Source of the DNA: Betaproteobacteria bacterium
GTDB lineage: Bacteria > Pseudomonadota > Gammaproteobacteria > Burkholderiales > Rhodocyclaceae
Assembly: GCA_009777925.1 (NCBI GenBank)
Contig: WRKX01000001.1
Coordinates: 216 to 64,215 of the forward strand
DNA: 64,000 nt
Direction of reading: 5' to 3'
Shown: in pieces, positions 2,774 through 63,540 of the stretch
Layout: each line of letters opens with the position of its first letter
Position numbering within the stretch: the first letter of the stretch is position 1
Notes under the pieces: generated by a model
Databases searched by the model: none
Told to the model about the DNA's origin: nothing
What the model saw: the letters and a program-made list of their open reading frames with translations, nothing else
Made by a program: the position numbers and the translations under genes

Positions 2774-3083
2774 AAGAAGCGTACCAACACCGCCTTGAAT
2801 TTATCAAGGAGTTGGTATTTTTTGCCGCGACCGTTCCTGCGTTCATTGCCACAAACCTGTGTCACACAACAAGACGCAGAGCATACATGTTAAACATAAA
2901 AAACGCAACCATGATTTTTAACAAATTACAACGATGATGCAACAAACACAACGATGATGCCTGAAACGCCACAAACGCCTCCCCGCCTTCGCGGGGACAG
3001 GCATGCGGGAATGACGAATAGGCTATCACCTGTGCGAAACAGCGACCACGCCGCTGTAGGGGCGACCGTCCCCGGTCGCCCGT

Positions 3084-3165: not shown

Positions 3166-3636
3166 TCGCTGTGCGGGCGACCGAGGACGGTCGCCCCTAC
3201 GGCGGCAACGCGGCATTGGTTTTAGCCCCCTTTATAAAAGGGGGTGGCGCGTTAGCGCCGGGGGTTTGCTTTCAGTCTGATAAACAGGCTGATAGATTGG
3301 CAGGTTGATAAGTTGGCAGATTGATAGATTGGAGTGAGCGCCGTTCTCTCCTCTCCCACGTCCAATCACTCGTCATTCCAGCGAAGGCGGGAATCCAGAC
3401 AAGCCTTTCCGTTCCTCTGGCATTTCTGTACAGAAATCTCGCTCCTGCCCTGTTCTGGAAACATGTTCCTGCTTCTGACGCCATACTGGATTCCCGCCTT
3501 CGCGGGAATGACGTGTGAATTGAGGTATGCGCGGTAGTGATGGACGGCTCTGTGCGAGCGCCTTTGCTCCCCTCTCCCGCTTGCGGGAGAGGGTGCGTAA
3601 AAAATATATTCGCATGAGCCGAAACTGCTCTGGTTC

Positions 3637-24266: not shown

Positions 24267-24434
24267 TCATTCTTTCGCACAGACTCCAACCCACCCGTCA
24301 TTCCCGCGAAGGCGGGAATCCAGTACGGCGTTGAAAGTCACGACAACTTTCCAGAACAGGACAGGAGCGGCATTCCCCAAACACCAACGGAGCGGAAAGG
24401 CTGCTCTGGATTCCCGCCTTCGCGGGAATGACGA
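24267..24434. repeat. MITE-like element bounded by inverted REPs (gtcattcccgcgaaggcgggaatccag ... ctggattcccgccttcgcgggaatgac)
   Basis: It has the same architecture and internal sequence as 49213-49415 and 3365-3515. Its left end (cattctttcgcacagact..) is shared with 52141-52177. Confidence 0.8.
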
Positions 24435-29660: not shown

Positions 29661-29766
29661 AAAATGAAACAACCCGGCAGGTTTCCCTGCCGGGTTGCTG
29701 GATACGAATTGCGTTGAAAACGCAATTCTTATTGTAGCAACGGCTCTCACCCCGGTTAGCCACAAT
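29661..29766 (-). ncRNA. tracrRNA (type II-C, Neisseria-like)
   Basis: The minus strand reads AUUGUGGCUAACCGGGGUGAGAGCCGUUGCUACAAUAAGAAUUGCGUUUUCAACGCAAUUCGUAUCCAGCAACCCGGCAGGGAAACCUGCCGGGUUGUUUCAUUUU. The 36-nt anti-repeat (29731-29766) pairs with the crRNA repeat, including a perfect 14-bp CUCUCACCCCGGUU/AACCGGGGUGAGAG segment and a GUUGUAGC/GCUACAAU segment. CCGUUGCUACAAUAAG is identical to the N. meningitidis tracrRNA/sgRNA scaffold as I recall it. Two hairpins follow, the last being a GC-rich stem plus a U-tract terminator. Confidence 0.8.
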
Positions 29767-29790: not shown

Positions 29791-32700
29791 ATGTCTGACA
29801 AGTCTACTGAACAACTTACTTTTGGCTTCGACATCGGCATTGCTTCGGTCGGCTGGTGCGTGCTTGGCGAAAAACACATCGTTGATCTCGGTGTGCGTTG
29901 TTTTGACAAGGCGGAAAACGCCAAGGATGGCGAGTCGCTCAACCTCGCCCGCCGTAGCGCCCGCCTCATGCGTCGGCGTCTGCGTCGCCGCGCATGGCGA
30001 TTGGTCAAACTGACGCGACTGTTGAAGCGCGAAGGGCTAATCAACAGCATTTAATCAATACGCCAGCCTGCCACGGAGTCACCCTGGCAACTTCGTGTGG
30101 ACGGGCTGGAGCGAAAACTCGCCCCGGAAGAATGGGCGCGCGTTCTTTACCACCTCTGCAAGCATCGTGGTTTTCACTGGATCAGTCGCGCGGAAGAGAA
30201 AAATGCAGAGGCAGACAGCAAGGGAGAAGGCGGCAAGGTCAAGAAAGGACTCTCGGATACCAAGCGGCGCATGAATGAAAAAAGCTACCGAAGCGCGGCT
30301 GAAATGGTGTTGAAGGAATTTCCAGAAGCGCAGCGCAACAAGCAGGGCGAGTACGCCAAGGCGCTCTCCCGCCTGCTGCTCGCTGAAGAACTTGCCTTGC
30401 TGTTTGAGCGGCAACGTGAATTGGGTAATCTTCATGCAACGCCCGAACTTGAGATGCGTATTGCCGGGTGCGGCGATCGCAAAAGCGGTCTGTTCTGGGA
30501 ACAGAAGCCGCCCCTGACCGGGGAAGGGCTTCTGAAAATGCTGGGACGCTGTACGTTCGAGAAAACCGAATATCGCGCCCCCAAAGCCAGTTTTACTGCC
30601 GAGCGCCATGTCTGGCTGACCCGCCTCAACAATCTGCGGATAGTCGTCGCAGGAAATGTTCGTCCGCTCAATGAAGCCGAACGCCGCATTGCCCTGCCCC
30701 TACCCTATCAGCAGGCCAGCGACCTCACCTACAAGCAACTGAAAAACGCCCTGGTCAAAGCCGGTTTGCTACCCGAAAACGTCAAATTTTCCGGGTTGGA
30801 TTATCCAACGCAGCAAGCCGAAGATAAAGTCAAAGACCCTGAATCCGAACGGCTGGTCAAACTTCCTGCCTGGCAGGCGCTACGCAAAACCCTCAAGGAA
30901 AAAGGGCTTGAAACCGAATGGAGAGGCATCGCCGGAGCCGCAACCGGAGGGCAACCAGAACTGCTAGACAGAATCGCCTGGACGCTCAGCGTATTCAAGG
31001 ACGGTGATGAGATCGAACAAGAGTTACGCAAACTCTCCCTGCCAGGCGGAGAAAAAATGGTTGATGCACTCAGCGAACTCAGCTTCGATAAATTTCACAA
31101 CCTGTCTCTCAAGGCGCTTGGCAAAATCGTTCCTCACATGGAAGTCGGGCTGCGCTATGACGAGGCATGTGCAAAAGCCGGTTATCACCACAGTCAACTA
31201 TCCAAGACAGGAGACGGTCAGCATAAATACCTGCCGCCTTTTTACTCCGGGCGAGATAAAGGCGGCCGCATGGTATTTGATGAGGAAAAGGATATTCCGC
31301 GTAATCCGGTTGTACTCCGTTCACTCAATCAGGCGCGCAAGGTGCTGAATGCGCTGGTAAGTCGTTATGGCTCGCCTTCCGTCGTGCATATTGAAATGGC
31401 GCGTGACTTATCACGCCCAATGGATGAACGAAACAAAATCAAAAAAGCTCAGGAAGAATTTCGTGACAAGAATGAAAAAGCCAAAGCAGATTTTGAGGCA
31501 AAATTCAATATGCCCGCAAAAAACCGGGAAGTTGAAAAATACCTGCTTTATAGCGAACAACATGGTAAGTGCGCCTACTCGCTGAAACCGCTCGATCTTG
31601 ACCGGGTATTGCATGACCAGGGTTATGCCGAAGTCGACCATGCCCTTCCCTGGTCGCGCAGTTACGACGATAGCAAAAATAACAAGGTTTTGGCGCTTAC
31701 CAGCGAGAATCGCAACAAGGGCAATCGTACGCCTTATGAATATCTGACTTCGTTTGCAGGAGGCGAAAATGGGGAACGCTGGCGCAACTTCGCAGCCTTC
31801 GTTGAAGGCAACAAGTCTTACCGGCTTGCCAAACGTAGCCGCTTGTTACGCAAGCATTTCGGCAAGGAAGAGTCCGAAGGATTCAAGGAGCGCAACCTCA
31901 ACGATACGCGCTACATCTGCAAATTTTTCAAGAATTATGTTGAGTGTTATCTGAAACTGGCCGAGGGTGGCGACAGCAAGCGTTGCGTCGTACTTAGCGG
32001 ACAACTCACGGCATTCCTGCGTGCCCGCTGGGGATTGCACAAAGTACGTAGCGACAATGATCGCCATCACGCGCTTGATGCTGTAGTTGTTGCCGCATGT
32101 AGCCACTCTCTCGTCAAACGTCTGTCTGACTATTCCAGGCGCAAGGAACTGGAGCAGGCCGGAAATGTTATTGACATGGAAACAGGAGAAATTCGTGACC
32201 CGGAATTGTTGTCAAAACTGGAACGACATTTTCCGAAACCTTGGGAGTATTTCCGGGAAGAACTTTTGCTGCGCTTGAATACAGACGATCCCGCTTTGCT
32301 CAAAAGAGAAGCGGAACGTCACGGCTATCCGTCGGCAACGCTGGAAAACCTGCGTCCCCTGTTCGTCTCCCGCGCGCCGAAACGTCGTAATAGTGGCGCG
32401 GCGCACATGGAAACCATCTATTCCCAGCCGGAACGCCTGAAAAGCACAGGAAGCGTTACGCAGAAAGTTTCTTTAACGAGCTTGACGCTCAAGGACATAG
32501 ATAATCTGATCGACCCGCACCGTAATGAAAAACTTTACGCGGCAATACGCACCCGACTGGAAGCACACAATGGCAAAGGTGACAAAGCTTTTCCTTCGGA
32601 TAACCCGTTACGCAAACCCGACCGTGACGGTAATCCAACCGGCCCTTTTGTCCGTAGCGTTACGATGCTCATTGACAAACTTTCCGGCATTCCGGTTCGC

Positions 32701-33141
32701 GGCGGCATTGCCAAAAACGACACCATGCTGCGTGTGGATGTGTTCAGGCATAAAAAAGACAGGAAATATCATCTTGTCCCCGTGTATGTGCACCATGCGG
32801 TAGCAAAGGAATTGCCAAATCGGGCAGTTGTGGCTTTCAAGGATGAAAATGAATGGACACTCATTGATGAAGAGAATTTCGATTTCTGTTTTTCTCTTTA
32901 TCCCAACGACCTGGTTAAAATCAGCCTAAAAAAAGGAGGAATCCTTGGGTATTACGCCGGTTGTAATCGTGCTACAGGCGCAATCGACCTTTGGACTCAC
33001 GATAGAAATCGGGCTATCGGGAAAGACGGACTGATTCAGAGTATCGGCGTTAAAACGGCTTTGTGTGTAGAAAAATTCCACGTCGACACCTTGGGCAATA
33101 TCTACCCTGCCCCGCCGGAGGAGCGCCGTGGGCTGGCGTAG
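29791..33141 (+). CDS. cas9: Type II-C Cas9, interrupted by a single in-frame TAA at 30052-30054 (possible pseudogene or split gene)
   Basis: AAGGAG lies 6 nt before ATG 29791. The N-terminus MSDKSTEQLTFGFDIGIASVGW is RuvC-I, followed by the Arg-rich bridge helix RRSARLMRRRLRRRAW. After the stop the same frame continues with homology (SPWQLRVDGLERKLAPEEWARVLYHLCKHRGF). The HNH domain is DHALPWSRSYDDSKNNKVL..NRNKGNRTPYEY and RuvC-III is DRHHALDAVVVA. The ORF track shows the two same-frame pieces 29695..30054 and 30097..33141. Confidence 0.9.
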
Positions 33142-34033
33142 TGTTATGATCTCCCGCCCGGCGCGTCTGCGGCGGGAGCATTATTCGCTGGCCATTGATC
33201 AGGAAGAAACGGCTTTCGTGCCTTTCGAGGACATTGCCGTGATTGTCCTCGATCATCGGGAAATCACGTTGACTCATCCGGTACTTTCGGCCTGTGCCGA
33301 GTACGGCATCAGTCTTTATGCTACCGGTAGCAATCACCAGCCCGCTGGCGTTTTTCTGCCGTTTCTTTCGCATTCGCGCGCCACGCGCATGATGCGAAAG
33401 CAGTTGGGCATCACCCGCCCGATGGTCAAGCGTCTCTGGGCAGATATTGTTCGCCGCAAGATCGAAAATCAGGCCGCCTGCCTTACCCTGTGCGGCAAAA
33501 AAGGCGTGGAAAGGCTGGAAACCTGTGCACAGCGCGTCCGCTCCGGCGATCCGAACAATCTGGAAGGACAGGCAGCCGCGATCTACTTTGCAGAGTTGTA
33601 CGGCGCTAATTTTTATCGCGAGGACAAAACGCGCTGGACAAATGCCGCGCTCAATTATGGTTATGCAGTCTTGCGGGGCGCTATCGCGCGAGGCTTGGTA
33701 GCGCACGGGTTTCATCCTTCCATCGGGTTGTTTCACGACAGTGAGCAGAATGCGTTCAATCTGGCCGATGATCTGATCGAGCCTTTCCGCCCATTGGTCG
33801 ACCTGTATGTCGCCCAATGCCCGGCCCCGAAGGAAGCTGAACTGATGCCGAAGGATAAACAAGCTCTGGTCGCCCTGTTGAATGTGGATGTCGGCATGCC
33901 GCAGGGAAAAATGTCGGCGCTCTCTGCCGTCGAGTACGCCGTTGAGAGTCTGGCGCGGACTTTTGAATCCGGTCATGTTGAACTTGACCTGCCTCGTCTA
34001 ATCGGTCTGCAAGCGCACAGGCTGGAGTATTGA
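33128..34033 (+). CDS. cas1: CRISPR-associated endonuclease Cas1 (type II)
   Basis: A GTG start overlaps the cas9 stop. The N-terminus MGWRSVMISRPARLRREHYSLAIDQEE.. is Nme-like. Also present: ..NLEGQAAAIYF.., ..NAALNYGYAVLR.., ..GLFHDSEQNAFNLADDLIEPFRPLVD... Confidence 0.92.
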   Translation: MGWRSVMISRPARLRREHYSLAIDQEETAFVPFEDIAVIVLDHREITLTHPVLSACAEYGISLYATGSNHQPAGVFLPFLSHSRATRMMRKQLGITRPMVKRLWADIVRRKIENQAACLTLCGKKGVERLETCAQRVRSGDPNNLEGQAAAIYFAELYGANFYREDKTRWTNAALNYGYAVLRGAIARGLVAHGFHPSIGLFHDSEQNAFNLADDLIEPFRPLVDLYVAQCPAPKEAELMPKDKQALVALLNVDVGMPQGKMSALSAVEYAVESLARTFESGHVELDLPRLIGLQAHRLEY

Positions 34034-34034
34034 T

Positions 34035-34367
34035 GTGGGCACAGAGACGAGGCGCTATATGCGATTGATCGTCTTTTTTGACCTGCCAATGGTAACCAAG
34101 GCTGAAAAACGCGCCTATGTGCAGTTCCGCCGCTTTCTCTTGAACGACGGCTACGACATGATCCAATGGTCGGTTTACGGACGCCTCTTGAACGGCAGGG
34201 ATGCTGAAATCAAGCATCTCGCCCGCCTGACGAATAACCTGCCTCCCGCAGGCTCTGTGCGCTGCATGACCGTCACCGAAAAACAATTCGCAGGCATCAA
34301 GTTGTTGGTCGGTATGCCTCTTTTTCAGGAAAAAAAGGTACAGGCATCCCAGATTCTGCTCTTTTGA
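34035..34367 (+). CDS. cas2: CRISPR-associated endoribonuclease Cas2
   Basis: The sequence ..YMRLIVFFDLPMVTKAEKRAYVQFRRFLLNDGYDMIQWSVYGR.. is typical of a type II Cas2. The gene follows 1 nt after cas1. Confidence 0.9.
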   Translation: MGTETRRYMRLIVFFDLPMVTKAEKRAYVQFRRFLLNDGYDMIQWSVYGRLLNGRDAEIKHLARLTNNLPPAGSVRCMTVTEKQFAGIKLLVGMPLFQEKKVQASQILLF

Positions 34368-34390
34368 CCTGAAAATTTAATGAAAGAAAT

Positions 34391-34415
34391 CCCCGCCAGG
34401 CCATGCCTGGCGGGG
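34391..34415. terminator. Bidirectional stem-loop terminator between cas2 and the array
   Basis: The stem-loop is ccccgccagg-ccatg-cctggcgggg. On the minus strand it is followed by atttctttcattaaatttt (U-rich). It is therefore well placed to stop minus-strand array read-through. Confidence 0.6.
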
Positions 34416-34430
34416 ACTTGAGGCAAGTAG

Positions 34431-37400
34431 ATTGTAGCAAACCGGGGTGAGAGAGGGAGCTACAACCGATAGCCCTCGACTGTGGTGTTTTGAAGTATTG
34501 TAGCAAACCGGGGTGAGAGAGGGAGCTACAACCCAGAGGCGGCGCGGACGATTTATGACCTAATTGTAGCAAACCGGGGTGAGAGAGGGAGCTACAACTG
34601 AAAAAATTGATTTTGAAAATGAAAATCGATTGTAGCAAACCGGGGTGAGAGAGGGAGCTACAACATTAGCCATCGTCATCTATCCATGCGTTTTATTGTA
34701 GCAAACCGGGGTGAGAGAGGGAGCTACAACATCCCATCCGCTTCAAGCCGTGTCGCTTTTATTGTAGCAAACCGGGGTGAGAGAGGGAGCTACAACCAGA
34801 TAAACCGGCTTGTCGACCCATTGCCAATTGTAGCAAACCGGGGTGAGAGAGGGAGCTACAACTCATATCCTCGTGCCATATTTGCAGCACAAATTGTAGC
34901 AAACCGGGGTGAGAGAGGGAGCTACAACGCGGCCTGAAGTTCCGCCTCGTTATACTGGATTGTAGCAAACCGGGGTGAGAGAGGGAGCTACAACCCTTCC
35001 GGCTGTTGCTGCCGTTGTCTACGCATTGTAGCAAACCGGGGTGAGAGAGGGAGCTACAACAGGCAGGGTTGAATACGGCGAGGGCACAGAATTGTAGCAA
35101 ACCGGGGTGAGAGAGGGAGCTACAACTCAATACGCGGGCTTGCGCTTGTCGTATTCATTGTAGCAAACCGGGGTGAGAGAGGGAGCTACAACGCGGGAGG
35201 CGCAGTCGAGTATGAAGGACGCATTGTAGCAAACCGGGGTGAGAGAGGGAGCTACAACCGCGTTCTTCGCAAAACCTACAAGCGCGTCATTGTAGCAAAC
35301 CGGGGTGAGAGAGGGAGCTACAACTGTTCTGCGTAGACCCCGGTCATAAGGAATATTGTAGCAAACCGGGGTGAGAGAGGGAGCTACAACCGGGCGGATA
35401 CCGGAAAATGACGGCGTGGAATTGTAGCAAACCGGGGTGAGAGAGGGAGCTACAACCCAGATGCCCGACTTCAACGCCCTGAATATATTGTAGCAAACCG
35501 GGGTGAGAGAGGGAGCTACAACGTTTTATTGCTTGTTGTGTTCATGGTGCCAATTGTAGCAAACCGGGGTGAGAGAGGGAGCTACAACACTTTGCAAAAG
35601 GTGATGGTTTGTGTTTTGATTGTAGCAAACCGGGGTGAGAGAGGGAGCTACAACTCGGAAAAGATGGGGCTATCAACCAAAGGGGATTGTAGCAAACCGG
35701 GGTGAGAGAGGGAGCTACAACATGCGTGTACAGAACCTGATTCTGATGGTGATTGTAGCAAACCGGGGTGAGAGAGGGAGCTACAACCGGCGGCACAAGC
35801 CGGATGGACTGCCGAAATTGTAGCAAACCGGGGTGAGAGAGGGAGCTACAACAACCGCCGGATAATCACGCGAAAACGCAACATTGTAGCAAACCGGGGT
35901 GAGAGAGGGAGCTACAACGCTTGTGAAATGACTAAAACCCCTGACTTTATTGTAGCAAACCGGGGTGAGAGAGGGAGCTACAACGCGCGGGTCTGAAGAT
36001 GCAAGAGCGCGAACATTGTAGCAAACCGGGGTGAGAGAGGGAGCTACAACAGACTGGAACGCGCCTGTTACGGAATTACGATTGTAGCAAACCGGGGTGA
36101 GAGAGGGAGCTACAACACTGCATCTACCATCGGCGCGGGTGGCCTGATTGTAGCAAACCGGGGTGAGAGAGGGAGCTACAACTGTCGGGCTAGGACAGGG
36201 AATGTCTAGTTTATTGTAGCAAACCGGGGTGAGAGAGGGAGCTACAACGCTTGGCGCAGGCTTTTCTTCAGACAAAACATTGTAGCAAACCGGGGTGAGA
36301 GAGGGAGCTACAACATATACGATAAGCATCCGCCCACTCTGATAATTGTAGCAAACCGGGGTGAGAGAGGGAGCTACAACCGACCGGCTATATTCATAGC
36401 AAGATATGTATTGTAGCAAACCGGGGTGAGAGAGGGAGCTACAACGCTATCAAATCAACGCGCCCTGTTAGCTGGATTGTAGCAAACCGGGGTGAGAGAG
36501 GGAGCTACAACATGAGTTATGTCGACCCACCCTCGGCAAAAATTGTAGCAAACCGGGGTGAGAGAGGGAGCTACAACCAAGGTTACGAACCCCTTTTTCC
36601 TGCGCGGATTGTAGCAAACCGGGGTGAGAGAGGGAGCTACAACATCCTCGACGCGCCATGCCGTGACATTTGGATTGTAGCAAACCGGGGTGAGAGAGGG
36701 AGCTACAACGCGGGCTTTTCCCACCGCAAAACACGATAGATTGTAGCAAACCGGGGTGAGAGAGGGAGCTACAACGCAACCACGCGGCGGGAGTGTGTAT
36801 GACCTATTGTAGCAAACCGGGGTGAGAGAGGGAGCTACAACAGTTTAATGTCGCTAGGGAATCTGGGCGAATTGTAGCAAACCGGGGTGAGAGAGGGAGC
36901 TACAACTCACCGTGCGAAAGTTCAAAGTCATTGTCAATTGTAGCAAACCGGGGTGAGAGAGGGAGCTACAACTGTCCCGCTTATATTTCTCCCTTGGTGT
37001 TGATTGTAGCAAACCGGGGTGAGAGAGGGAGCTACAACAAACAGGCATTTTCCCTCTTTTTCCTTAACATTGTAGCAAACCGGGGTGAGAGAGGGAGCTA
37101 CAACCGGGATGCTTGCGCGTGTTGCGAGCAGGCGATTGTAGCAAACCGGGGTGAGAGAGGGAGCTACAACATTTCAAACGGAATACCAAGCCCCATGCCA
37201 ATTGTAGCAAACCGGGGTGAGAGAGGGAGCTACAACGATAATGGCGCAGGAAAGTCCAGTGTCGCGATTGTAGCAAACCGGGGTGAGAGAGGGAGCTACA
37301 ACACTCTGGTGCAGACGACATACAAAACATCCATTGTAGCAAACCGGGGTGAGAGAGGGAGCTACAACGCATTTGATAGCGGCGTAGTATCCGGCATAAT

Positions 37401-40400
37401 TGTAGCAAACCGGGGTGAGAGAGGGAGCTACAACACCCGCCTTGCAAGCTGCTACGGTACGATTATTGTAGCAAACCGGGGTGAGAGAGGGAGCTACAAC
37501 CCTGCAAAAGCGCACCATGCTATTAGGTGAATTGTAGCAAACCGGGGTGAGAGAGGGAGCTACAACATACTGTATAATGCAGTTACAGGCGCGACAATTG
37601 TAGCAAACCGGGGTGAGAGAGGGAGCTACAACAGAATGGAAAAGATTCTGCCGGTACAACTGATTGTAGCAAACCGGGGTGAGAGAGGGAGCTACAACAT
37701 TTTTGTTAATACTTCGTTCACGACTTCGATTGTAGCAAACCGGGGTGAGAGAGGGAGCTACAACAGTATTTCACGTCCACCAGTATCCCGTAGAATTGTA
37801 GCAAACCGGGGTGAGAGAGGGAGCTACAACTCGCATTCACGCCACTCGGTAATAACCAGAATTGTAGCAAACCGGGGTGAGAGAGGGAGCTACAACAGCT
37901 CCGGCGATAATTCAACCGTCGGCCACATTGTAGCAAACCGGGGTGAGAGAGGGAGCTACAACTTCAAATAGTAATCGCCATTGTCTCGGCGAATTGTAGC
38001 AAACCGGGGTGAGAGAGGGAGCTACAACTTCAGGGGTTCTTCCGTTCTGCGTCTCCATATTGTAGCAAACCGGGGTGAGAGAGGGAGCTACAACCCCGCT
38101 GTCAAGGCTTGTCTTGGCAAGTCCATTGTAGCAAACCGGGGTGAGAGAGGGAGCTACAACACAATCCGGCGGACATCTCCACCATGCGATATTGTAGCAA
38201 ACCGGGGTGAGAGAGGGAGCTACAACGGGCGGCGATGGCGGACATATGCGCGGAAAATTGTAGCAAACCGGGGTGAGAGAGGGAGCTACAACGGGCAGGG
38301 TGGAGCTGCCTGAATTCCTGCATTGTAGCAAACCGGGGTGAGAGAGGGAGCTACAACGCGGGCGGCGCAGTCGAGTATGAAGGACGCATTGTAGCAAACC
38401 GGGGTGAGAGAGGGAGCTACAACAATTTCCGATAGCTGGTCGTCATTCCATTGATTGTAGCAAACCGGGGTGAGAGAGGGAGCTACAACCCGGCACGCCT
38501 TTCGTTGTAGCACGCGAAGATTGTAGCAAACCGGGGTGAGAGAGGGAGCTACAACGGGCTGGAGCAGGCCGGATAACGGAAGTGAATTGTAGCAAACCGG
38601 GGTGAGAGAGGGAGCTACAACGGTTTAATGTCGCTAGGGAATCTGGGCGAGATTGTAGCAAACCGGGGTGAGAGAGGGAGCTACAACCTTCAAGGCGCAA
38701 TAACACGCCCTCGAAAGATTGTAGCAAACCGGGGTGAGAGAGGGAGCTACAACTGGCGGGTACTTGCCCCAGGCGGCTAACGTATTGTAGCAAACCGGGG
38801 TGAGAGAGGGAGCTACAACTGGCGGGTACTTGCCCCAGGCGGCTAACGTATTGTAGCAAACCGGGGTGAGAGAGGGAGCTACAACAGAGGCGGGACAAGC
38901 CCGCCCCCTGTTTTCATTGTAGCAAACCGGGGTGAGAGAGGGAGCTACAACTGAGTTCATGACGATGCACTAGGATAAACAATTGTAGCAAACCGGGGTG
39001 AGAGAGGGAGCTACAACTCACAAATCGCGTTGATTTGTTCAGCAAGGATTGTAGCAAACCGGGGTGAGAGAGGGAGCTACAACGCGACGAGCTGCCCATG
39101 CACGACAAGACCGATTGTAGCAAACCGGGGTGAGAGAGGGAGCTACAACCTATCTGGAGTTCCGTCCAGCATACCAGCATTGTAGCAAACCGGGGTGAGA
39201 GAGGGAGCTACAACCGGGCGACGGTCGCGGGTCACGCAAGCATAATTGTAGCAAACCGGGGTGAGAGAGGGAGCTACAACCAAATATGGCACGAGGATAT
39301 GATGCAGTTAATTGTAGCAAACCGGGGTGAGAGAGGGAGCTACAACGTAATTGCTTGTGTCATGATGGTTCCTTCTATTGTAGCAAACCGGGGTGAGAGA
39401 GGGAGCTACAACACACGCCCCTACATACCCCTGCAACCTCAAATTGTAGCAAACCGGGGTGAGAGAGGGAGCTACAACGATTTATCCAATACTTGACGAA
39501 CCAGAAGAATTGTAGCAAACCGGGGTGAGAGAGGGAGCTACAACTGAACATGCGCTTCCACTTCCGATGCTTTATTGTAGCAAACCGGGGTGAGAGAGGG
39601 AGCTACAACCTGTTCAATACCGGCCTGCCGCGCTGCATAATTGTAGCAAACCGGGGTGAGAGAGGGAGCTACAACCCTGCAAAAGCGCACCATGCTATTA
39701 GGTGAATTGTAGCAAACCGGGGTGAGAGAGGGAGCTACAACCGGTTCATATTTATGAATCGTGCGAACAATATTGTAGCAAACCGGGGTGAGAGAGGGAG
39801 CTACAACACGGCTTGATAGCCATTGCAAAGCTGGAAGATTGTAGCAAACCGGGGTGAGAGAGGGAGCTACAACGCGGATAGCAAGTGAGCCAGCCTGTGT
39901 TATATTGTAGCAAACCGGGGTGAGAGAGGGAGCTACAACTCAATACGCGGGCTTGCGCTTGTCGTATTCATTGTAGCAAACCGGGGTGAGAGAGGGAGCT
40001 ACAACGCGGGAGGCGCAGTCGAGTATGAAGGACGCATTGTAGCAAACCGGGGTGAGAGAGGGAGCTACAACCGCGTTCTTCGCAAAACCTACAAGCGCGT
40101 CATTGTAGCAAACCGGGGTGAGAGAGGGAGCTACAACTGTTCTGCGTAGACCCCGGTCATAAGGAATATTGTAGCAAACCGGGGTGAGAGAGGGAGCTAC
40201 AACCGGGCGGATACCGGAAAATGACGGCGTGGAATTGTAGCAAACCGGGGTGAGAGAGGGAGCTACAACCCAGATGCCCGACTTCAACGCCCTGAATATA
40301 TTGTAGCAAACCGGGGTGAGAGAGGGAGCTACAACGTTTTATTGCTTGTTGTGTTCATGGTGCCAATTGTAGCAAACCGGGGTGAGAGAGGGAGCTACAA

Positions 40401-42184
40401 CACTTTGCAAAAGGTGATGGTTTGTGTTTTGATTGTAGCAAACCGGGGTGAGAGAGGGAGCTACAACTCGGAAAAGATGGGGCTATCAACCAAAGGGGAT
40501 TGTAGCAAACCGGGGTGAGAGAGGGAGCTACAACATGCGTGTACAGAACCTGATTCTGATGGTGATTGTAGCAAACCGGGGTGAGAGAGGGAGCTACAAC
40601 CGGCGGCACAAGCCGGATGGACTGCCGAAATTGTAGCAAACCGGGGTGAGAGAGGGAGCTACAACAACCGCCGGATAATCACGCGAAAACGCAACATTGT
40701 AGCAAACCGGGGTGAGAGAGGGAGCTACAACGCTTGTGAAATGACTAAAACCCCTGACTTTATTGTAGCAAACCGGGGTGAGAGAGGGAGCTACAACGCG
40801 CGGGTCTGAAGATGCAAGAGCGCGAACATTGTAGCAAACCGGGGTGAGAGAGGGAGCTACAACCGGGCGGAGCAATCAGATGGGGCGCGGCTGATTGTAG
40901 CAAACCGGGGTGAGAGAGGGAGCTACAACATAAGCGGCGATGATTCCGTCCCGAGCCTTATTGTAGCAAACCGGGGTGAGAGAGGGAGCTACAACGAACT
41001 GGTAGGTGGCACGGGCAGAGATTCGATTGTAGCAAACCGGGGTGAGAGAGGGAGCTACAACAAACGCCGTGGCTGCTGATAGCGCGACATCATTGTAGCA
41101 AACCGGGGTGAGAGAGGGAGCTACAACCGCGACATTGATGGCCTGACCGTCGAAATTAATTGTAGCAAACCGGGGTGAGAGAGGGAGCTACAACTATCTG
41201 GCGGAGCTAGGTTACTCACCTGTAATTGTAGCAAACCGGGGTGAGAGAGGGAGCTACAACAGCTCCGGCGATAATTCAACCGTCGGCCACATTGTAGCAA
41301 ACCGGGGTGAGAGAGGGAGCTACAACTCTTCTGCGTCGCTTGCTTTTTCGCAGCCGATTGTAGCAAACCGGGGTGAGAGAGGGAGCTACAACAGACCGGA
41401 CTCGAAAGATCATATGATTCCCATTGTAGCAAACCGGGGTGAGAGAGGGAGCTACAACTGTTCTGCGTAGACCCCGGTCATAAGGAATATTGTAGCAAAC
41501 CGGGGTGAGAGAGGGAGCTACAACGGCTTGCCTGAGGGCGCGGCGTTGCTCCGCATTGTAGCAAACCGGGGTGAGAGAGGGAGCTACAACGGTCATGGCT
41601 TAATCCTCCTGAACGAAATTATTGTAGCAAACCGGGGTGAGAGAGGGAGCTACAACTAGAACGTCTAGCGGCGTGTCGCTGGCTATATTGTAGCAAACCG
41701 GGGTGAGAGAGGGAGCTACAACATACGACAAGGCCGTACAGCTTGGGTTACGATTGTAGCAAACCGGGGTGAGAGATGGAGCTACAACGTTGGGCAATGC
41801 ACTTCCCGTCCCATGCCGATTGTAGCAAACCGGGGTGAGAGAGGGAGCTACAACCCTAATCTGCCTGAATCCGTAGGGGCGAACATTGTAGCAAACCGGG
41901 GTGAGAGAGGGAGCTACAACATGAGAGTTAAGCAAACCACCGTCTGAAGAATTGTAGCAAACCGGGGTGAGAGAGGGAGCTACAACGAAAGCCGTGAGAT
42001 TCGTTAGTTTCGTGCTATTGTAGCAAACCGGGGTGAGAGAGGGAGCTACAACCGCGTCTGAATCGCGCCCCAGAATTCCAAGATTGTAGCAAACCGGGGT
42101 GAGAGAGGGAGCTACAACACCAGCGTGAAAGTCCTGCCACATATTCCGATTGTAGCAAACCGGGGTGAGAGAGGGAGCTACAAC
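34431..42184 (-). CRISPR. Type II-C CRISPR array: 118 repeats of 36 bp, 117 spacers of 29-31 bp
   Basis: The plus-strand repeat is ATTGTAGCAAACCGGGGTGAGAGAGGGAGCTACAAC. Its reverse complement GTTGTAGCTCCCTCTCTCACCCCGGTTTGCTACAAT matches the N. meningitidis repeat (GTTGTAGCTCCCTTTCTCATTTCGCAGTGCTACAAT, from memory) at both ends, so the crRNA strand is inferred to be minus. I counted the spacers by hand. One variant repeat (G>T at 41777) is present. The many VVAPSLTPVCYN, CSSLSHPGLLQ and IVANRGERGSYN ORFs are translation artefacts of the repeat. Confidence 0.98.
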
Positions 42185-45983: not shown

Positions 45984-46124
45984 CAGTATCCCAAAAAGTA
46001 TGCAAAACAACAACAATCATCTCATGGCGTAATGGTTCTTTAATTTGACACCATCTTTCGACCCGTGTAGGCTATGCGCCGTTCTGTCCTGTTCTACGAT
46101 TTTCCGTAATGCGGGGCGGAACAA

Positions 46125-46315
46125 AATTTTCGCAATCTGGTGCCGCTGGCCTTTCTGGTCGGTGGTTAAACGGGAAAGCGGTGCGCGTCCTGGACGCAAT
46201 GCCGCTGCTGCCCCCGCAACGGTAAGCGAGTGAGGATTCGCCTTCATGCCACTGGGCGTTTTTGCCTGGGAAGGCGGCGAATCAAGACTTGCAAGCCCGG
46301 ATACCGGCCCGATGC
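46125..46315 (+). promoter_or_regulatory. Cobalamin (B12) riboswitch upstream of btuB
   Basis: Conserved core elements are present: GGTGCC..GGTTAAACGGGAAAGCGGTGCG..CCGCTGCTGCCCCCGCAACGGTAAGC..GCCACTGGG..CTGGGAAGGCGGCG. The B12 box AAGCCCGGATACCGGCC is at 46292-46309. Confidence 0.85.
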
Positions 46316-46446
46316 GAACCGATGGAAGTGTCGCGGGGCGCGGCGCTCCGGTTCTCATGGCCGGGGCGTTGTTCAATCCACGCGGTATCTCCCTTTTTCA
46401 CCATAAATTCCGGTTTGCGGGGACGCAAGACCGGATGGAGATTGCC

Positions 46447-49212: not shown

Positions 49213-49415
49213 CTTTCGCACTGGCTTTAACTTACTCGTCATTCCCGCGAAGGCGGGAATCCAGTACAGAGTTGAAAGCTATGACAGGTTTCCAGAAAAG
49301 GAACGACATTCCCATGCGGAAGGGCAAGAGGAGCGGCATTCCCGCTTTGCGTCATACTGAACACAAGTCACAAATTTTGATGCATTACTGGATTCCCGCC
49401 TTCGCGGGAATGACA
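49213..49415. repeat. MITE-like element bounded by inverted REPs (same family as 24267-24434)
   Basis: cattctttcgcac..gtcattcccgcgaaggcgggaatccagtacagagttgaaagc ... ctggattcccgccttcgcgggaatgac. Confidence 0.8.
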
Positions 49416-51464: not shown

Positions 51465-52079
51465 ATGAAACTAGGCAAAAACCGTTCCGAACTCTGTTAT
51501 ACCTACATCTTTGATCCCTCGTGGCTTTGCGATTACGAGGTGTTGACCGATGAACTCTCCGCTCAGCTAGGCATGGCGCTCTCCGCCGCCGAGACGGATG
51601 CCGCCCTGGTTGATCTCGTGCCCGATCTTGATCGTCTCCAGACGCTTGCCCTGCATGCCAACGGCTCCATTCGGGGAAAGCCTGCTATTACCGAAGCAGA
51701 CCTTGACTGGCTGCATCTATGCTATGACCATTTTCGGCAGGAAATTGAAGCCAAAGAGCCGGATCGCCTTAAAAACTTCGTTCTCCCTCGCGGCCTTGCT
51801 CCTGTGCCGGAATTGCATCAGGCGCGATCCACCGCCAAGAAGGCGCTGCGTTGCCTCGTGCGCCTGGAAAGAGAGGCGGAAAACCGTCGGGAGATTCCGG
51901 CGGAAATCCCCCGCTTCCTGAACCTTGCGTGCAACTTCTGCTTTTTGCTTACCGCGCTAATCAACCAACGCCGGGGTATTACCGAGCCTCATTTCATCAG
52001 CAAAAGTTACGCGGTATCAGGAGATGCAATCAGGGGGAAGGGATCAAGGTATAAGCGTGTAGGCTGGATTGAGGCGTAG
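51465..52079 (+). CDS. PduO-type ATP:cob(I)alamin adenosyltransferase-like protein (divergent)
   Basis: ..YEVLTDELSAQLGMAL.. and ..LKNFVLPRGLAPVPELHQARSTAKKALRCLVRL.. plus ..RFLNLACNFCFLLT.. parallel the GTLDELN and FILPGG..LHVARTVCRRAER / LNRLSDLLF blocks of the Cob_adeno_trans family. It is the last gene of the B12-uptake operon. Confidence 0.5.
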   Translation: MKLGKNRSELCYTYIFDPSWLCDYEVLTDELSAQLGMALSAAETDAALVDLVPDLDRLQTLALHANGSIRGKPAITEADLDWLHLCYDHFRQEIEAKEPDRLKNFVLPRGLAPVPELHQARSTAKKALRCLVRLEREAENRREIPAEIPRFLNLACNFCFLLTALINQRRGITEPHFISKSYAVSGDAIRGKGSRYKRVGWIEA

Positions 52080-52177
52080 CCCAACGTTGCGGCGGTATTT
52101 ATAATGCTTTTCGCAAATAAAACGACTATCAGGTGCGGTTATTCTTTCGCACAGACTATAATCCACCAGTCATTCCC

Positions 52178-52411
52178 GCATGCCTGTCCCCGCGAAGGCG
52201 GGGAGCGGGAATCTTGGCAGTTGTCATATGCTTTGTGTTGCCGGCATGCCTGTCCCCGCGAAGGCGGGGAGCGGGAATCACCCTGCGGCGAATGCCGATC
52301 CGCCAGTTGGCATGCCTGTCCCCGCGAAGGCGGGGAGCGGGAATCTTTAGGGTATCCAGCGCCTCCGGCGCGCCAGCATGCCTGTCCCCGCGAAGGCGGG
52401 GAGCGGGAATC
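52178..52411. CRISPR. Orphan CRISPR-like mini-array: 4 x 36-bp repeats, 3 x 30-bp unique spacers; the repeat is a REP-family palindrome
   Basis: The repeat is GCATGCCTGTCCCCGCGAAGGCGGGGAGCGGGAATC, at 52178-52213, 52244-52279, 52310-52345 and 52376-52411, all identical. The spacers are at 52214-52243, 52280-52309 and 52346-52375, each exactly 30 nt and mutually unrelated. There are no adjacent cas genes. Confidence 0.7.
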
Positions 52412-52570
52412 CAGTACAGCATAGCAGCAACGACAGGTTACCCCATAACAGGGCAGTAGCGGCGTTCCCATACGGAAACAGCTGAAACACTACCCATTTT
52501 GTTGTGCACTGCCGCAAAAGGCAAAATAAGGCGTAAAATGCCTGGCTTTGCAACTGAAGGTGTTTTTTCC

Positions 52571-53041
52571 ATGAAATTTTTCGCTTCTCTGCCGCCCATT
52601 CCTGAATTTCATCCGCCCATGTTCATCAAGCGGCTGAATCAACGTTTGCCCCAATGGCCACATGCCGCTTCCCTCTGCCTTGCCCTGAACGCGGCGGTAA
52701 GTTTCAAGCTGCTGCCGGAAGAAGTCTTGCAGCTTTGTTCCGGGCGGCGAATTCTTGTCGCGGTCAACGACACCGGAACCCGCGCCTTGTTTACCTGCCT
52801 GAACGGCATATTTCAGCCTGTATGGCGGGAGACTGCCAGCGCCGATGTCCGGTTTCACGGCGACATGCACGCTTATATGAAACTCTTTTTTCGTCAGGAA
52901 GACCCGGATACCCTGTTCTTCAACCGCCTGCTTACCATCGAGGGCGATACCGAGTTGGGGCTGGCGATCAAGAATCTCCTGGATTCCATTGAATCGCCGC
53001 AGCAAGTTTTCCGGCGATTCTTCGGCTTTGGCGAGGCGTAA
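52571..53041 (+). CDS. SCP2 sterol-binding-domain protein (UbiT/YhbT-like)
   Basis: The preferred start is ATG 52571 (MKFFASLPPIPEF..). The C-terminal motif ..FFNRLLTIEGDTELGLAIKNLLDSI.. is typical of the SCP2 domain. The overlapping minus-strand 227-aa ORF is rejected. Confidence 0.7.
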   Translation: MKFFASLPPIPEFHPPMFIKRLNQRLPQWPHAASLCLALNAAVSFKLLPEEVLQLCSGRRILVAVNDTGTRALFTCLNGIFQPVWRETASADVRFHGDMHAYMKLFFRQEDPDTLFFNRLLTIEGDTELGLAIKNLLDSIESPQQVFRRFFGFGEA

Positions 53042-59629: not shown

Positions 59630-61006
59630 TCATCCCTTGAAGCACTGGGTCAGCACATGCAGGTCGTGGTTCAGCGTATTGTCCTGCGCCTTGATTTCCT
59701 CGATTGTTCTGAAGGCGTGGATGACAGTCGTATGGTCGCGTCCACCAAATGCTTCTCCGATCATAGGGTAACTACAGGAAGTCACTTCCTTGCAAAGCCA
59801 CATCGCCACCTGCCGGGGACGGGCAATGGAACGGGAACGCTTGCGGGAAAGCAGGTCGGCCAGCTTGATCTTGTAATAACCGGCAACAGTTTTCTGGATT
59901 TCCTCGATGCTGATGTTGCGCGTCGAATTGATTAGCTCTTTCAGGGCTTCCCGCGCCAGTTCAAGGGTAATGGGCGAGTTGCGGAAATTCGCATAGGCAA
60001 TCACCTTCTTTAACGCACCTTCCAACTCGCGCACATTGGCGCGGAGACTCCTGGCAATGAAAAAAGAAACATCGTTGGAAAGTGCAAAACCCTCCGCTTC
60101 CGCCTTCTTTTGCAGAATTGCCACCCGCATTTCGGTTTCCGGCGGCTCAATCTGCACGGTAAGCCCCCAGTCAAACCTGCTTACCAGACGCCCGTCCAGA
60201 CCGTTAATATCTTTCGGGTAGGTGTCGCAGGTAATGACAATTTGCTTGCCTGCTTCCACCAACGCATTGAAAACAAAGAAAAATTCTTCCTTGGTGCGGG
60301 ATTTGTCGCCGACCCCGAAGAATTGCACATCGTCCAGCAGCAGCACATCCAGACTGCGGTAATAATTCTTCATATCGACAAAAGCGCCCTGCCGATAGGC
60401 TCGCATCACATCGTTGCAGTAGTCCTCGGCATGGACATAACGCACAACCTTGTCGGAAAACTGCTGGATGATCCGGTTGCCGACGGCATGTAACAGGTGA
60501 GTCTTGCCAAGACCGGGGCCGCCATAGATAAAGAGCGGGTTGTAGAGACTACCGCCCGGCTTTTCCGCAACATTCTCCGCTGCGGCATAGGCAAGGTTGT
60601 TGGCCTTGCCGATCACCAGATTTTCAAAAAACTGGTTCTGATTAAGACGGGTACGCTCGTAAAACGCCTTTTGCTCGTCCTGTTCCCGCGCTGGCGGCTT
60701 AGGCGGCGCGGTTTTCTCCTGTTTTCCGGGTTTTTCGGCCTGCCCTGCCTTCTCCTTATCCGGTTGGCGTATTTCCAGCCGCACGGCAATCGGCCTGCCG
60801 TAAAAATCAGCCGCAAAATCCTGGATAAACTCCAGATAATGCTGGCGTACCCAGTTGCAGATGAAATTGCTGGGCGCGACCAGACAAAGCCCTTCGTCCG
60901 GCGTGTTCTCGCCATCCACGTAGAGCTGGGAAATCCAGACGGCAAACCTTTTTGGCGGCAATTTCTCTCTCAACCCGCCAAGGCAGGCATCCCAAAAACC
61001 AGACAT
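59630..61006 (-). CDS. dnaA: Chromosomal replication initiator protein DnaA
   Basis: Domain I is MSGFWDACLGGLREKLPPKRFAVWISQLYV. The AAA+ domain has GGPGLGKTHLLHAVGN and LLLDDVQF. Domain IV is ..RPRQVAMWLCKEVT..SYPMIGEAFGGRDHTTVIHA... Confidence 0.93.
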   Translation of the reverse strand: MSGFWDACLGGLREKLPPKRFAVWISQLYVDGENTPDEGLCLVAPSNFICNWVRQHYLEFIQDFAADFYGRPIAVRLEIRQPDKEKAGQAEKPGKQEKTAPPKPPAREQDEQKAFYERTRLNQNQFFENLVIGKANNLAYAAAENVAEKPGGSLYNPLFIYGGPGLGKTHLLHAVGNRIIQQFSDKVVRYVHAEDYCNDVMRAYRQGAFVDMKNYYRSLDVLLLDDVQFFGVGDKSRTKEEFFFVFNALVEAGKQIVITCDTYPKDINGLDGRLVSRFDWGLTVQIEPPETEMRVAILQKKAEAEGFALSNDVSFFIARSLRANVRELEGALKKVIAYANFRNSPITLELAREALKELINSTRNISIEEIQKTVAGYYKIKLADLLSRKRSRSIARPRQVAMWLCKEVTSCSYPMIGEAFGGRDHTTVIHAFRTIEEIKAQDNTLNHDLHVLTQCFKG

Positions 61007-61130: not shown

Positions 61131-61222
61131 TCCTTCCGAGGAGCGTTGCGAGAGTGCCAACTCCCAGGCTCGGAAGGCGTCGCCCATAACGGTAGACAGC
61201 ATCAACGGCGCTCGCCTTCCAC
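61131..61222 (+). promoter_or_regulatory. SAH (S-adenosylhomocysteine) riboswitch in the ahcY leader
   Basis: CCGAGGAGCGUUGCGA..AGGCUCGGAAGG..CAACGGCGCUCGCC matches the conserved pseudoknot core of the SAH element (CCGAGGAGCGCUGCGAC..AGGCUCGG..AACGGCGCUC). A TATAAT box lies at 61118-61123 just upstream. Confidence 0.75.
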
Positions 61223-62699: not shown

Positions 62700-63540
62700 A
62701 TTTCACCCTTTCTCCCCTCTCCCACTTATGGTGTCTTGCAGACGGCAATTGGGGCGGGGAGGAGGGAGTCGGGGTCAAGAGATTCAGGAAGCGTAAATTT
62801 CAACCTGAACGCTGCCCTCTCCCGGCCTGCGACCACCCTCTCCCACTCGCGGCGTAGTCACAAGCGGGAGAGGGGAGAAAACAATTGCCGCATGTTGAGG
62901 TTTGCGCCAAGCCTTCTAATTATCGCCGTTACGTTGGGGTTCGCGTTGCTCACCCCAACCTACAAAACTACCCACAAAACTAATGGGAGAGCAAGTAGGG
63001 GCGAACCTGTGTGTTCGCCAGCATTTGGGCAGACACGCAGGTCTGCCCCTACGGTCTTGCGGAAATGACCATATGCCCTCCCGTATTTCAGCCCTGTAGG
63101 TTGGGGTGAGCGGTACGCGAACCCCAACATTGAAGCTACCGCAAACACCTTTCTCCCCTCTCCCGCTTGTGTATATGCCGCAAACGGAAGATGGGAGAAA
63201 CTGTGCGGGCGACCGAGGACGGTCGCCCATACGGCGGCAATGCGGCATTGGTTTTAGCCCCCTTTATAAAAAGGGGTGGCGCGTTAGCGCCGGGGGTTTG
63301 CTTTCCGTCTGATAGATTGGAGCAAGCGCCTTTCCCCCCTCTCCCTCTCCCGCTCCCCGCCTTCGCGGGGACAGGCATGCTGGAATGACGGATGGGTTAT
63401 AATCTGTGCGAAATCACCTGTGCGAAATAGCGACCGCGCCACTGTAGGGGCGAATAATTATTCGCCCCTACGCCGCAAGCAGGAGCTATCCGGCAAAACC
63501 CCGGCGGCTTCGCGCCACCCCCTTTTAAAAGAGGATTGCT
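62700..63540. repeat. 0.85-kb REP mosaic (the same families as 2280-3640)
   Basis: Contains ctctcccacttatgg.., the gttggggttcgcgttgctcaccccaacctac pair, gtaggggcgaacctgtgtgttcgcc, gggcagacacgcaggtctgcccctacgg, ttagccccctttataaaaaggggtggcgcgttagcgccgggggtttgc, and gtaggggcgaataattattcgcccctac. Confidence 0.9.

Follow-up and report, generated by a model that had tools for sequence, protein, structure and literature searches.

Orphan CRISPR-like arrays in a dRS3-type host palindrome: probable scars of ectopic integration by a resident type II-C Cas1-Cas2

New CRISPR arrays can arise from errors of the spacer integrase. In E. coli, type I-E "neo-CRISPR" arrays reportedly form through off-target integration by Cas1-Cas2 (Nivala, Shipman & Church, 2018, Nat Microbiol 3:310); natural evidence for such events has so far been circumstantial only and comes from two other species (bioRxiv 10.1101/148544). 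In vitro, integration occurs beside cruciform-prone inverted repeats on plasmids that carry no CRISPR locus (PMC5389526), and off-target full-site integration takes place at repeat-length spacing (PMC6698737); type II-A integrases depend strongly on the leader-repeat junction (PMC6895254). Host palindromes are the other thread of this story: the dRS3-type inverted repeat, ATTCCC-N8-GGGAAT, was defined for the NIMEs of Neisseria (PMC1797815). The two threads meet in the locus described here, which lies at 52178-52411 of the window, the whole 64,000-nucleotide stretch of DNA that was analysed. The host is a termite-gut bacterium whose closest relatives are MAGs labelled Azoarcus or Zoogloeaceae. 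The locus and the element around it are composed of the following parts:

52100-52177, + strand: conserved left arm of a MITE-like element, ending ...gtcATTCCC
52178-52213, + strand: orphan repeat 1, 36 bp
52214-52243, + strand: insert S1, 30 bp, unique
52244-52279, + strand: orphan repeat 2, with no ATTCCC arm on its left
52280-52309, + strand: insert S2, 30 bp, unique
52310-52345, + strand: orphan repeat 3
52346-52375, + strand: insert S3, 30 bp, unique
52376-52411, + strand: orphan repeat 4, then CAGTAC, the right flank that is usual in the family
52412-52480 (right limit approximate), + strand: remnant of the MITE interior, from a by-eye comparison

The reading made earlier from the sequence alone (hereafter, the sequence-only reading) had described four identical 36-bp repeats separated by three unrelated 30-bp spacers, and copies and boundaries alike were found to be exact. 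The repeat, GCATGCCTGTCCCCGCGAAGGCGGGGAGCGGGAATC, is present in four exact copies on the + strand (starts 52178, 52244, 52310 and 52376) with a start-to-start period of 66 bp; the repeat search returned no match in any of 100 shuffled controls. Inserts S1-S3 are exactly 30 bp each, are mutually unrelated and match nothing else in the window. The bases preceding copies 1-4 are C, G, G and A, and those following them are T, A, T and C; because these flanking bases differ, the repeated unit is 36 bp, neither 35 nor 37. The left arm (52100-52177) is 96-99% identical to the ends of other MITE-like copies in two of the compared stretches (L006 and L004). The ATTCCC that precedes repeat 1 is the left arm of a palindrome and lies outside the duplicated unit: it is found only at copy 1, and copies 2-4 start directly where an insert ends. 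The remnant at 52412-52480 resembles 24320-24400 and lacks the terminal inverted palindrome.

The same four-repeat array, identical throughout, is present on a JGI contig (JGI24701J34945_10000470) and on an ENA contig (ERZ27257348 k141_3339106); since these are two independently named metagenome contigs, the array is not an error of a single assembly. It lies between cobalamin-uptake genes and an SCP2 gene, its immediate neighbours being the genes for cob(I)alamin adenosyltransferase and SCP2, and neither a cas gene nor a leader nor an anti-repeat adjoins it, as the earlier reading had said. With at least three near-identical direct repeats of 23-47 bp and unique spacers of similar length, it has the form that array finders look for. 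A protein-coding repeat was considered and rejected: the period of 66 bp is a whole number of codons (22), which alone keeps four frames open, and none of the ORFs matches Pfam.

What is the repeat? The sequence-only reading assigned it to a host REP family. A host palindrome it is, although of a kind that can be named more precisely, an expanded palindrome of the dRS3/NIME type, with the organization ATTCCCGC-ATGCCTGT-CCCCGCGAAGGCGGGG-A-GCGGGAAT. The full palindrome of 41 bp has a folding energy of -16.6 kcal/mol as single-stranded DNA (z = -4.3). At gathering score, no Rfam family matches the orphan repeat (52178-52411). At the position of the orphan repeat, the other two copies of the MITE-like element in the window (24267-24434 and 49213-49415) have gtcATTCCCGCGAAGGCGGGAATccagtac, the canonical dRS3-type inverted repeat; the flanks had been called MITE-like, with a short palindrome in both other copies, and a 20-bp palindrome indeed occupies this position in each. 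Single copies of the repeat had also been reported on the opposite strand, at 2976-3010 and 63347-63383; they exist, at slightly shifted coordinates. The related sites in the window are:

2972-3006, - strand: partial single copy of the orphan repeat, right end diverged, unoccupied
24300-24319 with 24410-24429: canonical 20-bp palindrome ATTCCCGCGAAGGCGGGAAT in a MITE-like copy
49241-49260 with 49392-49411: the same 20-bp palindrome in the other MITE-like copy
63345-63380, - strand: single copy of the orphan repeat, three mismatches at the GGGAATC end, unoccupied

Beyond the window, the 36-mer is rare. An exact scan of 185,579 species, one genome each, found it in one MAG only, Th196P3bin67 (WRMF01), which carries it at four loci and never more than twice at any one of them; the metagenome scan yielded six stretches, adding only one further copy from the window's own sample and one short contig from another sample, and an exact scan of IMG/VR gave no match. 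This MAG and the window's sample are 100% identical across 5.5 kb at one locus and differ at another, locus C, by 1 SNP in 7176 bp, with the same insert; on this sequence comparison, they appear to belong to the same near-clonal population.

These copies include both empty and occupied sites. The earlier reading had proposed a search for other copies with 66-bp periodicity. Two further loci of the same population do have a 36-bp duplication around a unique 30-bp insert. Locus B (L005/L010), next to ccmABC and an autotransporter-like gene, consists of the 36-mer, tgtttgtcgcccgcctcaaacgcggcagcg (30 bp) and the 36-mer again. Locus C (L004/L009/L018/L019), next to an ATP-grasp gene and a radical-SAM gene, consists of the 36-mer, tcgccgatacaggcatagcggcgcttggag (30 bp) and a 35-mer with a one-base deletion in a G run; a 54-aa ORF overlies it. 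Unoccupied single 36-mers are present in L003 (one) and L006 (one at each end of a single MITE), flanked as gtcATTCCC / 36-mer / CAG, and a fourth was found in L008, which comes from a different metagenome. When the seven sites are aligned, this flank-repeat-flank arrangement is common to all: four (L003, both element ends of L006, and L008) are single, three are expanded by n x 66 bp, and the differences are whole 66-bp units only. The five inserts at the three loci are all exactly 30 bp long and do not match one another, and in 236 kb of compared DNA none of them recurs, as a part of the REP or MITE family might be expected to do. In the same 236 kb, 36-bp duplications with a period of 60-72 are confined to the resident CRISPR array and the orphan-type loci. 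No cas gene lies next to any of the three occupied loci, and no array of more than four orphan repeats was seen in any collection searched. Among the five inserts, T is the first base in four and G the last base in four, and the resident spacers differ in this respect; with only five inserts, this bias may be due to chance.

The resident array just mentioned belongs to a type II-C system, whose parts in the window are:

29661-29766, - strand: candidate tracrRNA, with anti-repeat at 29731-29766 and terminator hairpin at 29671-29696
29791-33141, + strand: cas9, with an in-frame TAA at 30052-30054 (codon 88)
33128-34033, + strand: cas1, reading frame intact, the proposed integrase
34035-34367, + strand: cas2, reading frame intact
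34368-34430, + strand: probable leader, containing the hairpin CCCCGCCAGGCCATGCCTGGCGGGG, placed by analogy with N. meningitidis (PMC12477760)
34431-42184, - strand: type II-C array, 118 repeats of 36 bp and 117 spacers

On the + strand, the cas genes immediately precede the array, and the candidate tracrRNA anti-repeat matches the CRISPR repeat, which Rfam identifies as CRISPR-DR34 on the minus strand. The position of the leader is presumed from the layout of the N. meningitidis locus. An array of the same 66-bp unit about 10 kb away had been pointed out in the sequence-only reading, correctly: the resident array ends 9994 bp upstream of the orphan array, its repeats are 36 bp long (117 of 118 identical), and its spacers are mostly 30 bp (107, or 91%; seven are of 29 bp and three of 31 bp). 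In a second assembly, it has 44 repeats, a subset of the 118 in the window with nothing new at either end. The intact cas1 and cas2 frames, together with the length and uniformity of the array, suggest that Cas1-Cas2 is potentially active. cas9 is a different matter, as the stop at codon 88 is present in both assemblies. In N. meningitidis, acquisition drops sharply and PAM choice is lost when cas9 is deleted, and stable expression fails in a mutant without RuvC-I and the bridge helix (PMC12477760); the integrations may predate the cas9 stop or may reflect a residual activity that does not need Cas9. In a cell that lacks interference, spacers that are self-derived or useless would be cost-free.

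How could a host palindrome have acquired CRISPR geometry? The orphan arrays are probably the products of leader-independent ectopic integration by the resident II-C Cas1-Cas2. The target would be one copy of the host palindrome, the expanded dRS3-type inverted repeat that ends the MITE-like element. The integrase would (i) make staggered cuts 36 bp apart, a distance set by its repeat-length ruler; and (ii) join a 30-bp prespacer to both ends of the cut target; gap repair would then duplicate the 36-bp segment. Three successive off-target integrations would yield the array at 52178-52411, and one integration each would account for the two other occupied palindrome copies of the same genome. 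What attracts the integrase is most likely the strong tendency of the 41-bp palindrome to form a hairpin or cruciform, and not any leader-like sequence; of the two borders, we infer, one is fixed by anchoring and the ruler places the other.

The borders of the duplicated unit carry much of this argument. The left cut falls inside the left palindrome arm (ATTCCC|GC) and the right cut one base past the right arm (GGGAATC|). The duplicated segment is thus offset from the palindrome axis, as it would be if a fixed-length staggered cut were made in a palindrome of 41 bp with a ruler of 36 bp; this offset argues against recombination between complete palindromes, and the absence of the ATTCCC arm from the internal repeats likewise indicates that a fixed 36-bp segment was duplicated, as by a staggered cut. 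The duplicated unit is 36 bp with identical boundaries at all three loci, and both lengths, of repeat and of insert, are those of the resident array. Both cut sites are at G on the attacked strand; G is the base that a type II-A integrase prefers for off-target integration (PMC6895254). By a rough estimate, an unrelated mechanism that duplicates 10-60 bp and inserts 10-100 bp would match both lengths by chance about 2 times in 10,000, and with the variable lengths of NIME-like RS elements the chance of a length match would be far lower.

Ectopic integration by Cas1-Cas2 into a REP palindrome had been the central proposal of the sequence-only reading. It gains support from the 36/30 geometry, the two additional loci and the empty paralogous sites; a resemblance between target and leader is absent. 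In local alignments, the target and its flanks matched neither the resident repeat nor the probable leader-repeat junction significantly better than shuffled sequences did (p = 0.08-1.0). CATGCCTG and GCGGGGAC, which are shared between the leader hairpin and the orphan repeat, were set aside as coincidence: their positions do not map onto the cut sites.

Could the host have built these loci without Cas proteins? A mosaic of the NIME type, in which a dRS3-specific recombinase or homologous recombination stacks palindromes and RS segments, is an improbable account. Flanks and palindrome are of the Neisseria dRS3 type (gtcATTCCC...GGGAATccag), NIME arrays are made up of several dRS3 with differing RS elements of 19-214 bp between them (PMC1797815), and related palindromes do cluster in L008 and L027; yet the internal orphan units are incomplete palindromes that lack the ATTCCC arm, the five inserts are all 30 bp where RS elements range over 19-214 bp, these inserts belong to no recurring family in the 236 kb of compared DNA, and all copies are direct and identical, with a match to the 36/30 of the resident array that would have to be a coincidence. 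An ordinary cluster of related palindromes looks different: in L027, and likewise in L008, the units are complete, of mixed orientation and roughly 70-150 bp apart. Nor do the orphan copies form a REP/BIME cluster, since all are direct, their linkers are unique and their orientation does not alternate. It is similarly doubtful that an unknown mechanism linked to the element itself, be it a MITE/REP transposase or an enzyme of the RAYT, IS110 or Piv type, captured and duplicated fragments of fixed length. The confinement of all events to one palindrome variant that ends one family of mobile elements speaks for such a mechanism, as does the lack of sequence resemblance to a CRISPR leader or repeat. 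We know of no transposase or site-specific recombinase that duplicates 36 bp of its target around a unique insert of 30 bp, however; no gene for either was seen beside any of the three loci, and the exact match to the two rulers of the resident integrase would be left unaccounted for.

That the loci are genuine small arrays of a second CRISPR system, lost or unassembled, or functional satellite arrays, is very unlikely. Identical 36-bp repeats with unique spacers of equal length do satisfy array finders, and the MAG may be incomplete; but the repeat also occurs singly, as the terminal palindrome of a MITE whose other copies carry the 20-bp dRS3 there, and it has no Rfam CRISPR-repeat match, promoter-like site or anti-repeat match. 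Another cas locus using this repeat would have made the array an ordinary satellite; the one genome that carries the 36-mer has at most two copies per locus, and the collections searched hold no cas-linked array and none longer than four repeats. Least credible of all is an assembly artefact, or an ordinary tandem duplication whose copies later diverged. Repeats can be joined wrongly in metagenome assemblies, and the length of the resident array does differ between assemblies, but the four-repeat array is identical in the window, the JGI contig and the ENA contig, and locus C has an identical insert in two different samples. Tandem duplication would have copied the inserts too, an objection raised in the sequence-only reading that holds: they share no similarity, and the repeats are 100% identical.

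If integration by the resident Cas1-Cas2 created these arrays, do they work as arrays? Probably not: we take them to be inert, neutral scars of integrase activity and not a second immune memory. Transcription of type II-C crRNAs starts from promoters that lie within the repeats (PMC12477760). At its end, the resident repeat carries TGCTACAAT, which we read as an extended -10 box; by eye, the orphan repeat has no counterpart of it. Neither a sigma-70 promoter-like nor a terminator-like site was found in the region 51900-52700, and the repeat search gave no orphan-repeat match in the tracrRNA stretch with the anti-repeat (29731-29766). The arrays are probably inert because they lack a promoter-like site, the TGCTACAAT box and an anti-repeat match, and because cas9 is interrupted. 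As canonical CRISPR loci they would not qualify, judged by their sequence features: they are without cas genes or a leader, belong to no known repeat family and show no sign of expression. The idea that the array is a snapshot of array birth, put forward at the outset, goes beyond the data, in which the arrays look like non-functional integration scars.

Searches for the origin and history of the inserts gave little. No protospacer for any of the five was found in phage, plasmid or IMG/VR collections; BLAST against INPHARED phages and PLSDB plasmids returned chance-level matches only (E >= 0.5). The two terminal resident spacers, which served as controls, also found no exact match in IMG/VR, so that the absence of protospacers is uninformative: the collections hardly cover the mobile elements of this organism. 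Of the 117 resident spacers (99 distinct), just two had matches, both weak and both to capsid genes of microviruses. Between the two samples, which are near-clonal (1 SNP in 7176 bp at locus C), no insert was seen to be gained or lost. In relatives, the homologues of the flanking adenosyltransferase (78-86% identity, n = 6) either keep synteny, with a 75-bp spacer and no element, or have different neighbours. The orthologous locus offers no intermediate state, the whole element being absent where synteny is kept; an identical sequence at this locus in distant relatives, which would have argued against new integrations, is not what these genomes hold: relatives whose flanking protein is 80-86% identical are without the element altogether.

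The window and its sister loci present a natural series within one palindrome family, from empty sites through sites with one insert to one site with three, in which both rulers of the resident integrase can be read. More broadly, we lean towards the view that a host palindrome of the dRS3/REP type is a recurrent, leader-independent landing site for type II-C Cas1-Cas2 in nature, with three independent proto-arrays of 1-3 spacers to its record. If this is true, new CRISPR repeat families can be seeded from palindromic repeat elements of the host, and full-site integration by a type II system can be guided by the structure of the DNA instead of by a leader sequence. If confirmed, the palindrome would provide a concrete sequence with which to study leader-free recognition by type II-C Cas1-Cas2, would support a convergent origin of CRISPR repeats from host palindromes, and would turn a class of "false CRISPRs" in the output of array finders into records of integrase activity. 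A repeat-length duplication around a spacer-length insert suggests itself as a signature for genome-wide searches.

How do these loci compare with the systems already described? As is reported for the E. coli neo-CRISPR arrays, a stretch of non-CRISPR DNA as long as a repeat is duplicated around an insert as long as a spacer, and repeated events build a small array away from the cas genes; unlike those arrays, which were reportedly induced by over-expression, the ones described here are natural, belong to a type II-C setting and occupy three copies of a single host palindrome family. The off-target products obtained in vitro (P. furiosus, PMC6698737; S. thermophilus II-A, PMC6895254; E. coli, PMC5389526) share with them the paired attacks one repeat-length apart, the G at the attacked position and the preference for inverted repeats. 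By contrast, the in vitro work used plasmid assays, and II-A off-targets are mostly half-sites that resemble the leader-repeat junction, which is not so here. With the NIMEs (PMC1797815), the orphan arrays have in common a dRS3-type palindrome as a seed, the ATTCCC/GGGAAT arms, the gtc/ccag flanks and the character of an intergenic mosaic of repeats; but a NIME combines complete 20-bp palindromes with members of RS families of 19-214 bp, whereas here truncated 36-bp direct copies alternate with unique 30-bp inserts, and the host of NIMEs is Neisseria, whereas the closest relatives here are the MAGs labelled Azoarcus or Zoogloeaceae. Array neogenesis in the N. meningitidis II-C system (PMC12477760) concerns the same subtype, has the same 36/30 geometry and likewise starts from one repeat. 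There, a genuine, leader-flanked CRISPR repeat is used and Cas9 is needed for efficiency; the arrays described here were seeded in a foreign palindrome that has no leader, in a genome whose cas9 is interrupted. The founding of arrays by off-target integration has already been shown experimentally; what these loci would add is a natural, type II-C example, seeded by a dRS3-type palindrome and found at three loci, with the empty sites kept.

The cas9 gene of the resident type II-C system is interrupted, and a candidate tracrRNA lies upstream of it:

29791-33141, cas9, with an in-frame TAA at 30052-30054 (codon 88)
29661-29766, candidate tracrRNA (minus strand)

The stop divides the reading frame into an 87-aa piece, which carries both the RuvC-I motif and the arginine-rich bridge helix, and a subsequent 1014-aa ORF; the identical split is present in an ENA assembly of the CRISPR locus. 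The gene is probably a pseudogene; despite the stop, cas1, cas2, and the 118-repeat array have been kept. In the candidate tracrRNA, positions 29731-29766 form an anti-repeat of almost full length, and a T-run follows the terminator hairpin at 29671-29696.

The resident array (34431-42184) holds only 99 distinct sequences among its 117 spacers because 17 of them are present more than once. In a second assembly of the locus (L026, 11304-14178) the array has 44 repeats and corresponds to spacers 1-10, 84-94, and 96-117 of the window; either the array has collapsed during assembly, or the deletions are true variants. For two resident spacers (~35457-35486 and ~40270-40299) there are weak matches, 27-34 nt long at 82-96% identity (E 0.06-0.7), to genes for the major capsid protein of gut-associated Microviridae.

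How do the five orphan inserts, the proposed off-target Cas1-Cas2 integrations, compare with this array? The elements concerned are:

52214-52375, three orphan inserts in the window
2378-2407 of L005, a further locus, one insert
6522-6551 of L004, another such locus, one insert
34390-34416, hairpin CCCCGCCAGGCCATGCCTGGCGGGG in the probable CRISPR leader

The inserts begin with T in four of five cases and end with G in four of five, versus 19% T at position 1 and 29% G at position 30 among resident spacers, a bias that may be due to chance. The leader hairpin and the orphan repeat have CATGCCTG and GCGGGGAC in common; tested by shuffling, this resemblance falls short of significance (p = 0.08), and the common stretches do not coincide with the cut sites.

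The orphan array lies where an operon preceded by a cobalamin riboswitch (46121-46326) and encoding a TonB-dependent receptor, FecCD, an ABC transporter, and cob(I)alamin adenosyltransferase terminates. About 7 kb downstream is a dnaA-family gene (~59630-61006, minus strand, L001 annotation); the replication origin may therefore be close to both the orphan array and the CRISPR locus. An SAH riboswitch (61132-61220) precedes the adenosylhomocysteinase gene. One partial palindrome copy is adjoined by both a 90-bp tandem repeat (2.3 copies, 1714-1917) and a perfect (TG)22 microsatellite (2729-2772).

Palindromes of the Neisseria dRS3 type and NIME-like mosaic elements occur at several places:

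24267-24434, 49213-49415, and ~3381-3513 in the window
L008 and L027, stretches with related palindrome clusters

The form found here is ATTCCC-N8-GGGAAT with gtc/ccag flanks. According to the 2007 FAM18 genome paper, such dRS3/NIME arrays had not been seen outside Neisseria; the MAG that carries the present palindromes and mosaics has its closest relatives among MAGs labelled Azoarcus or Zoogloeaceae.
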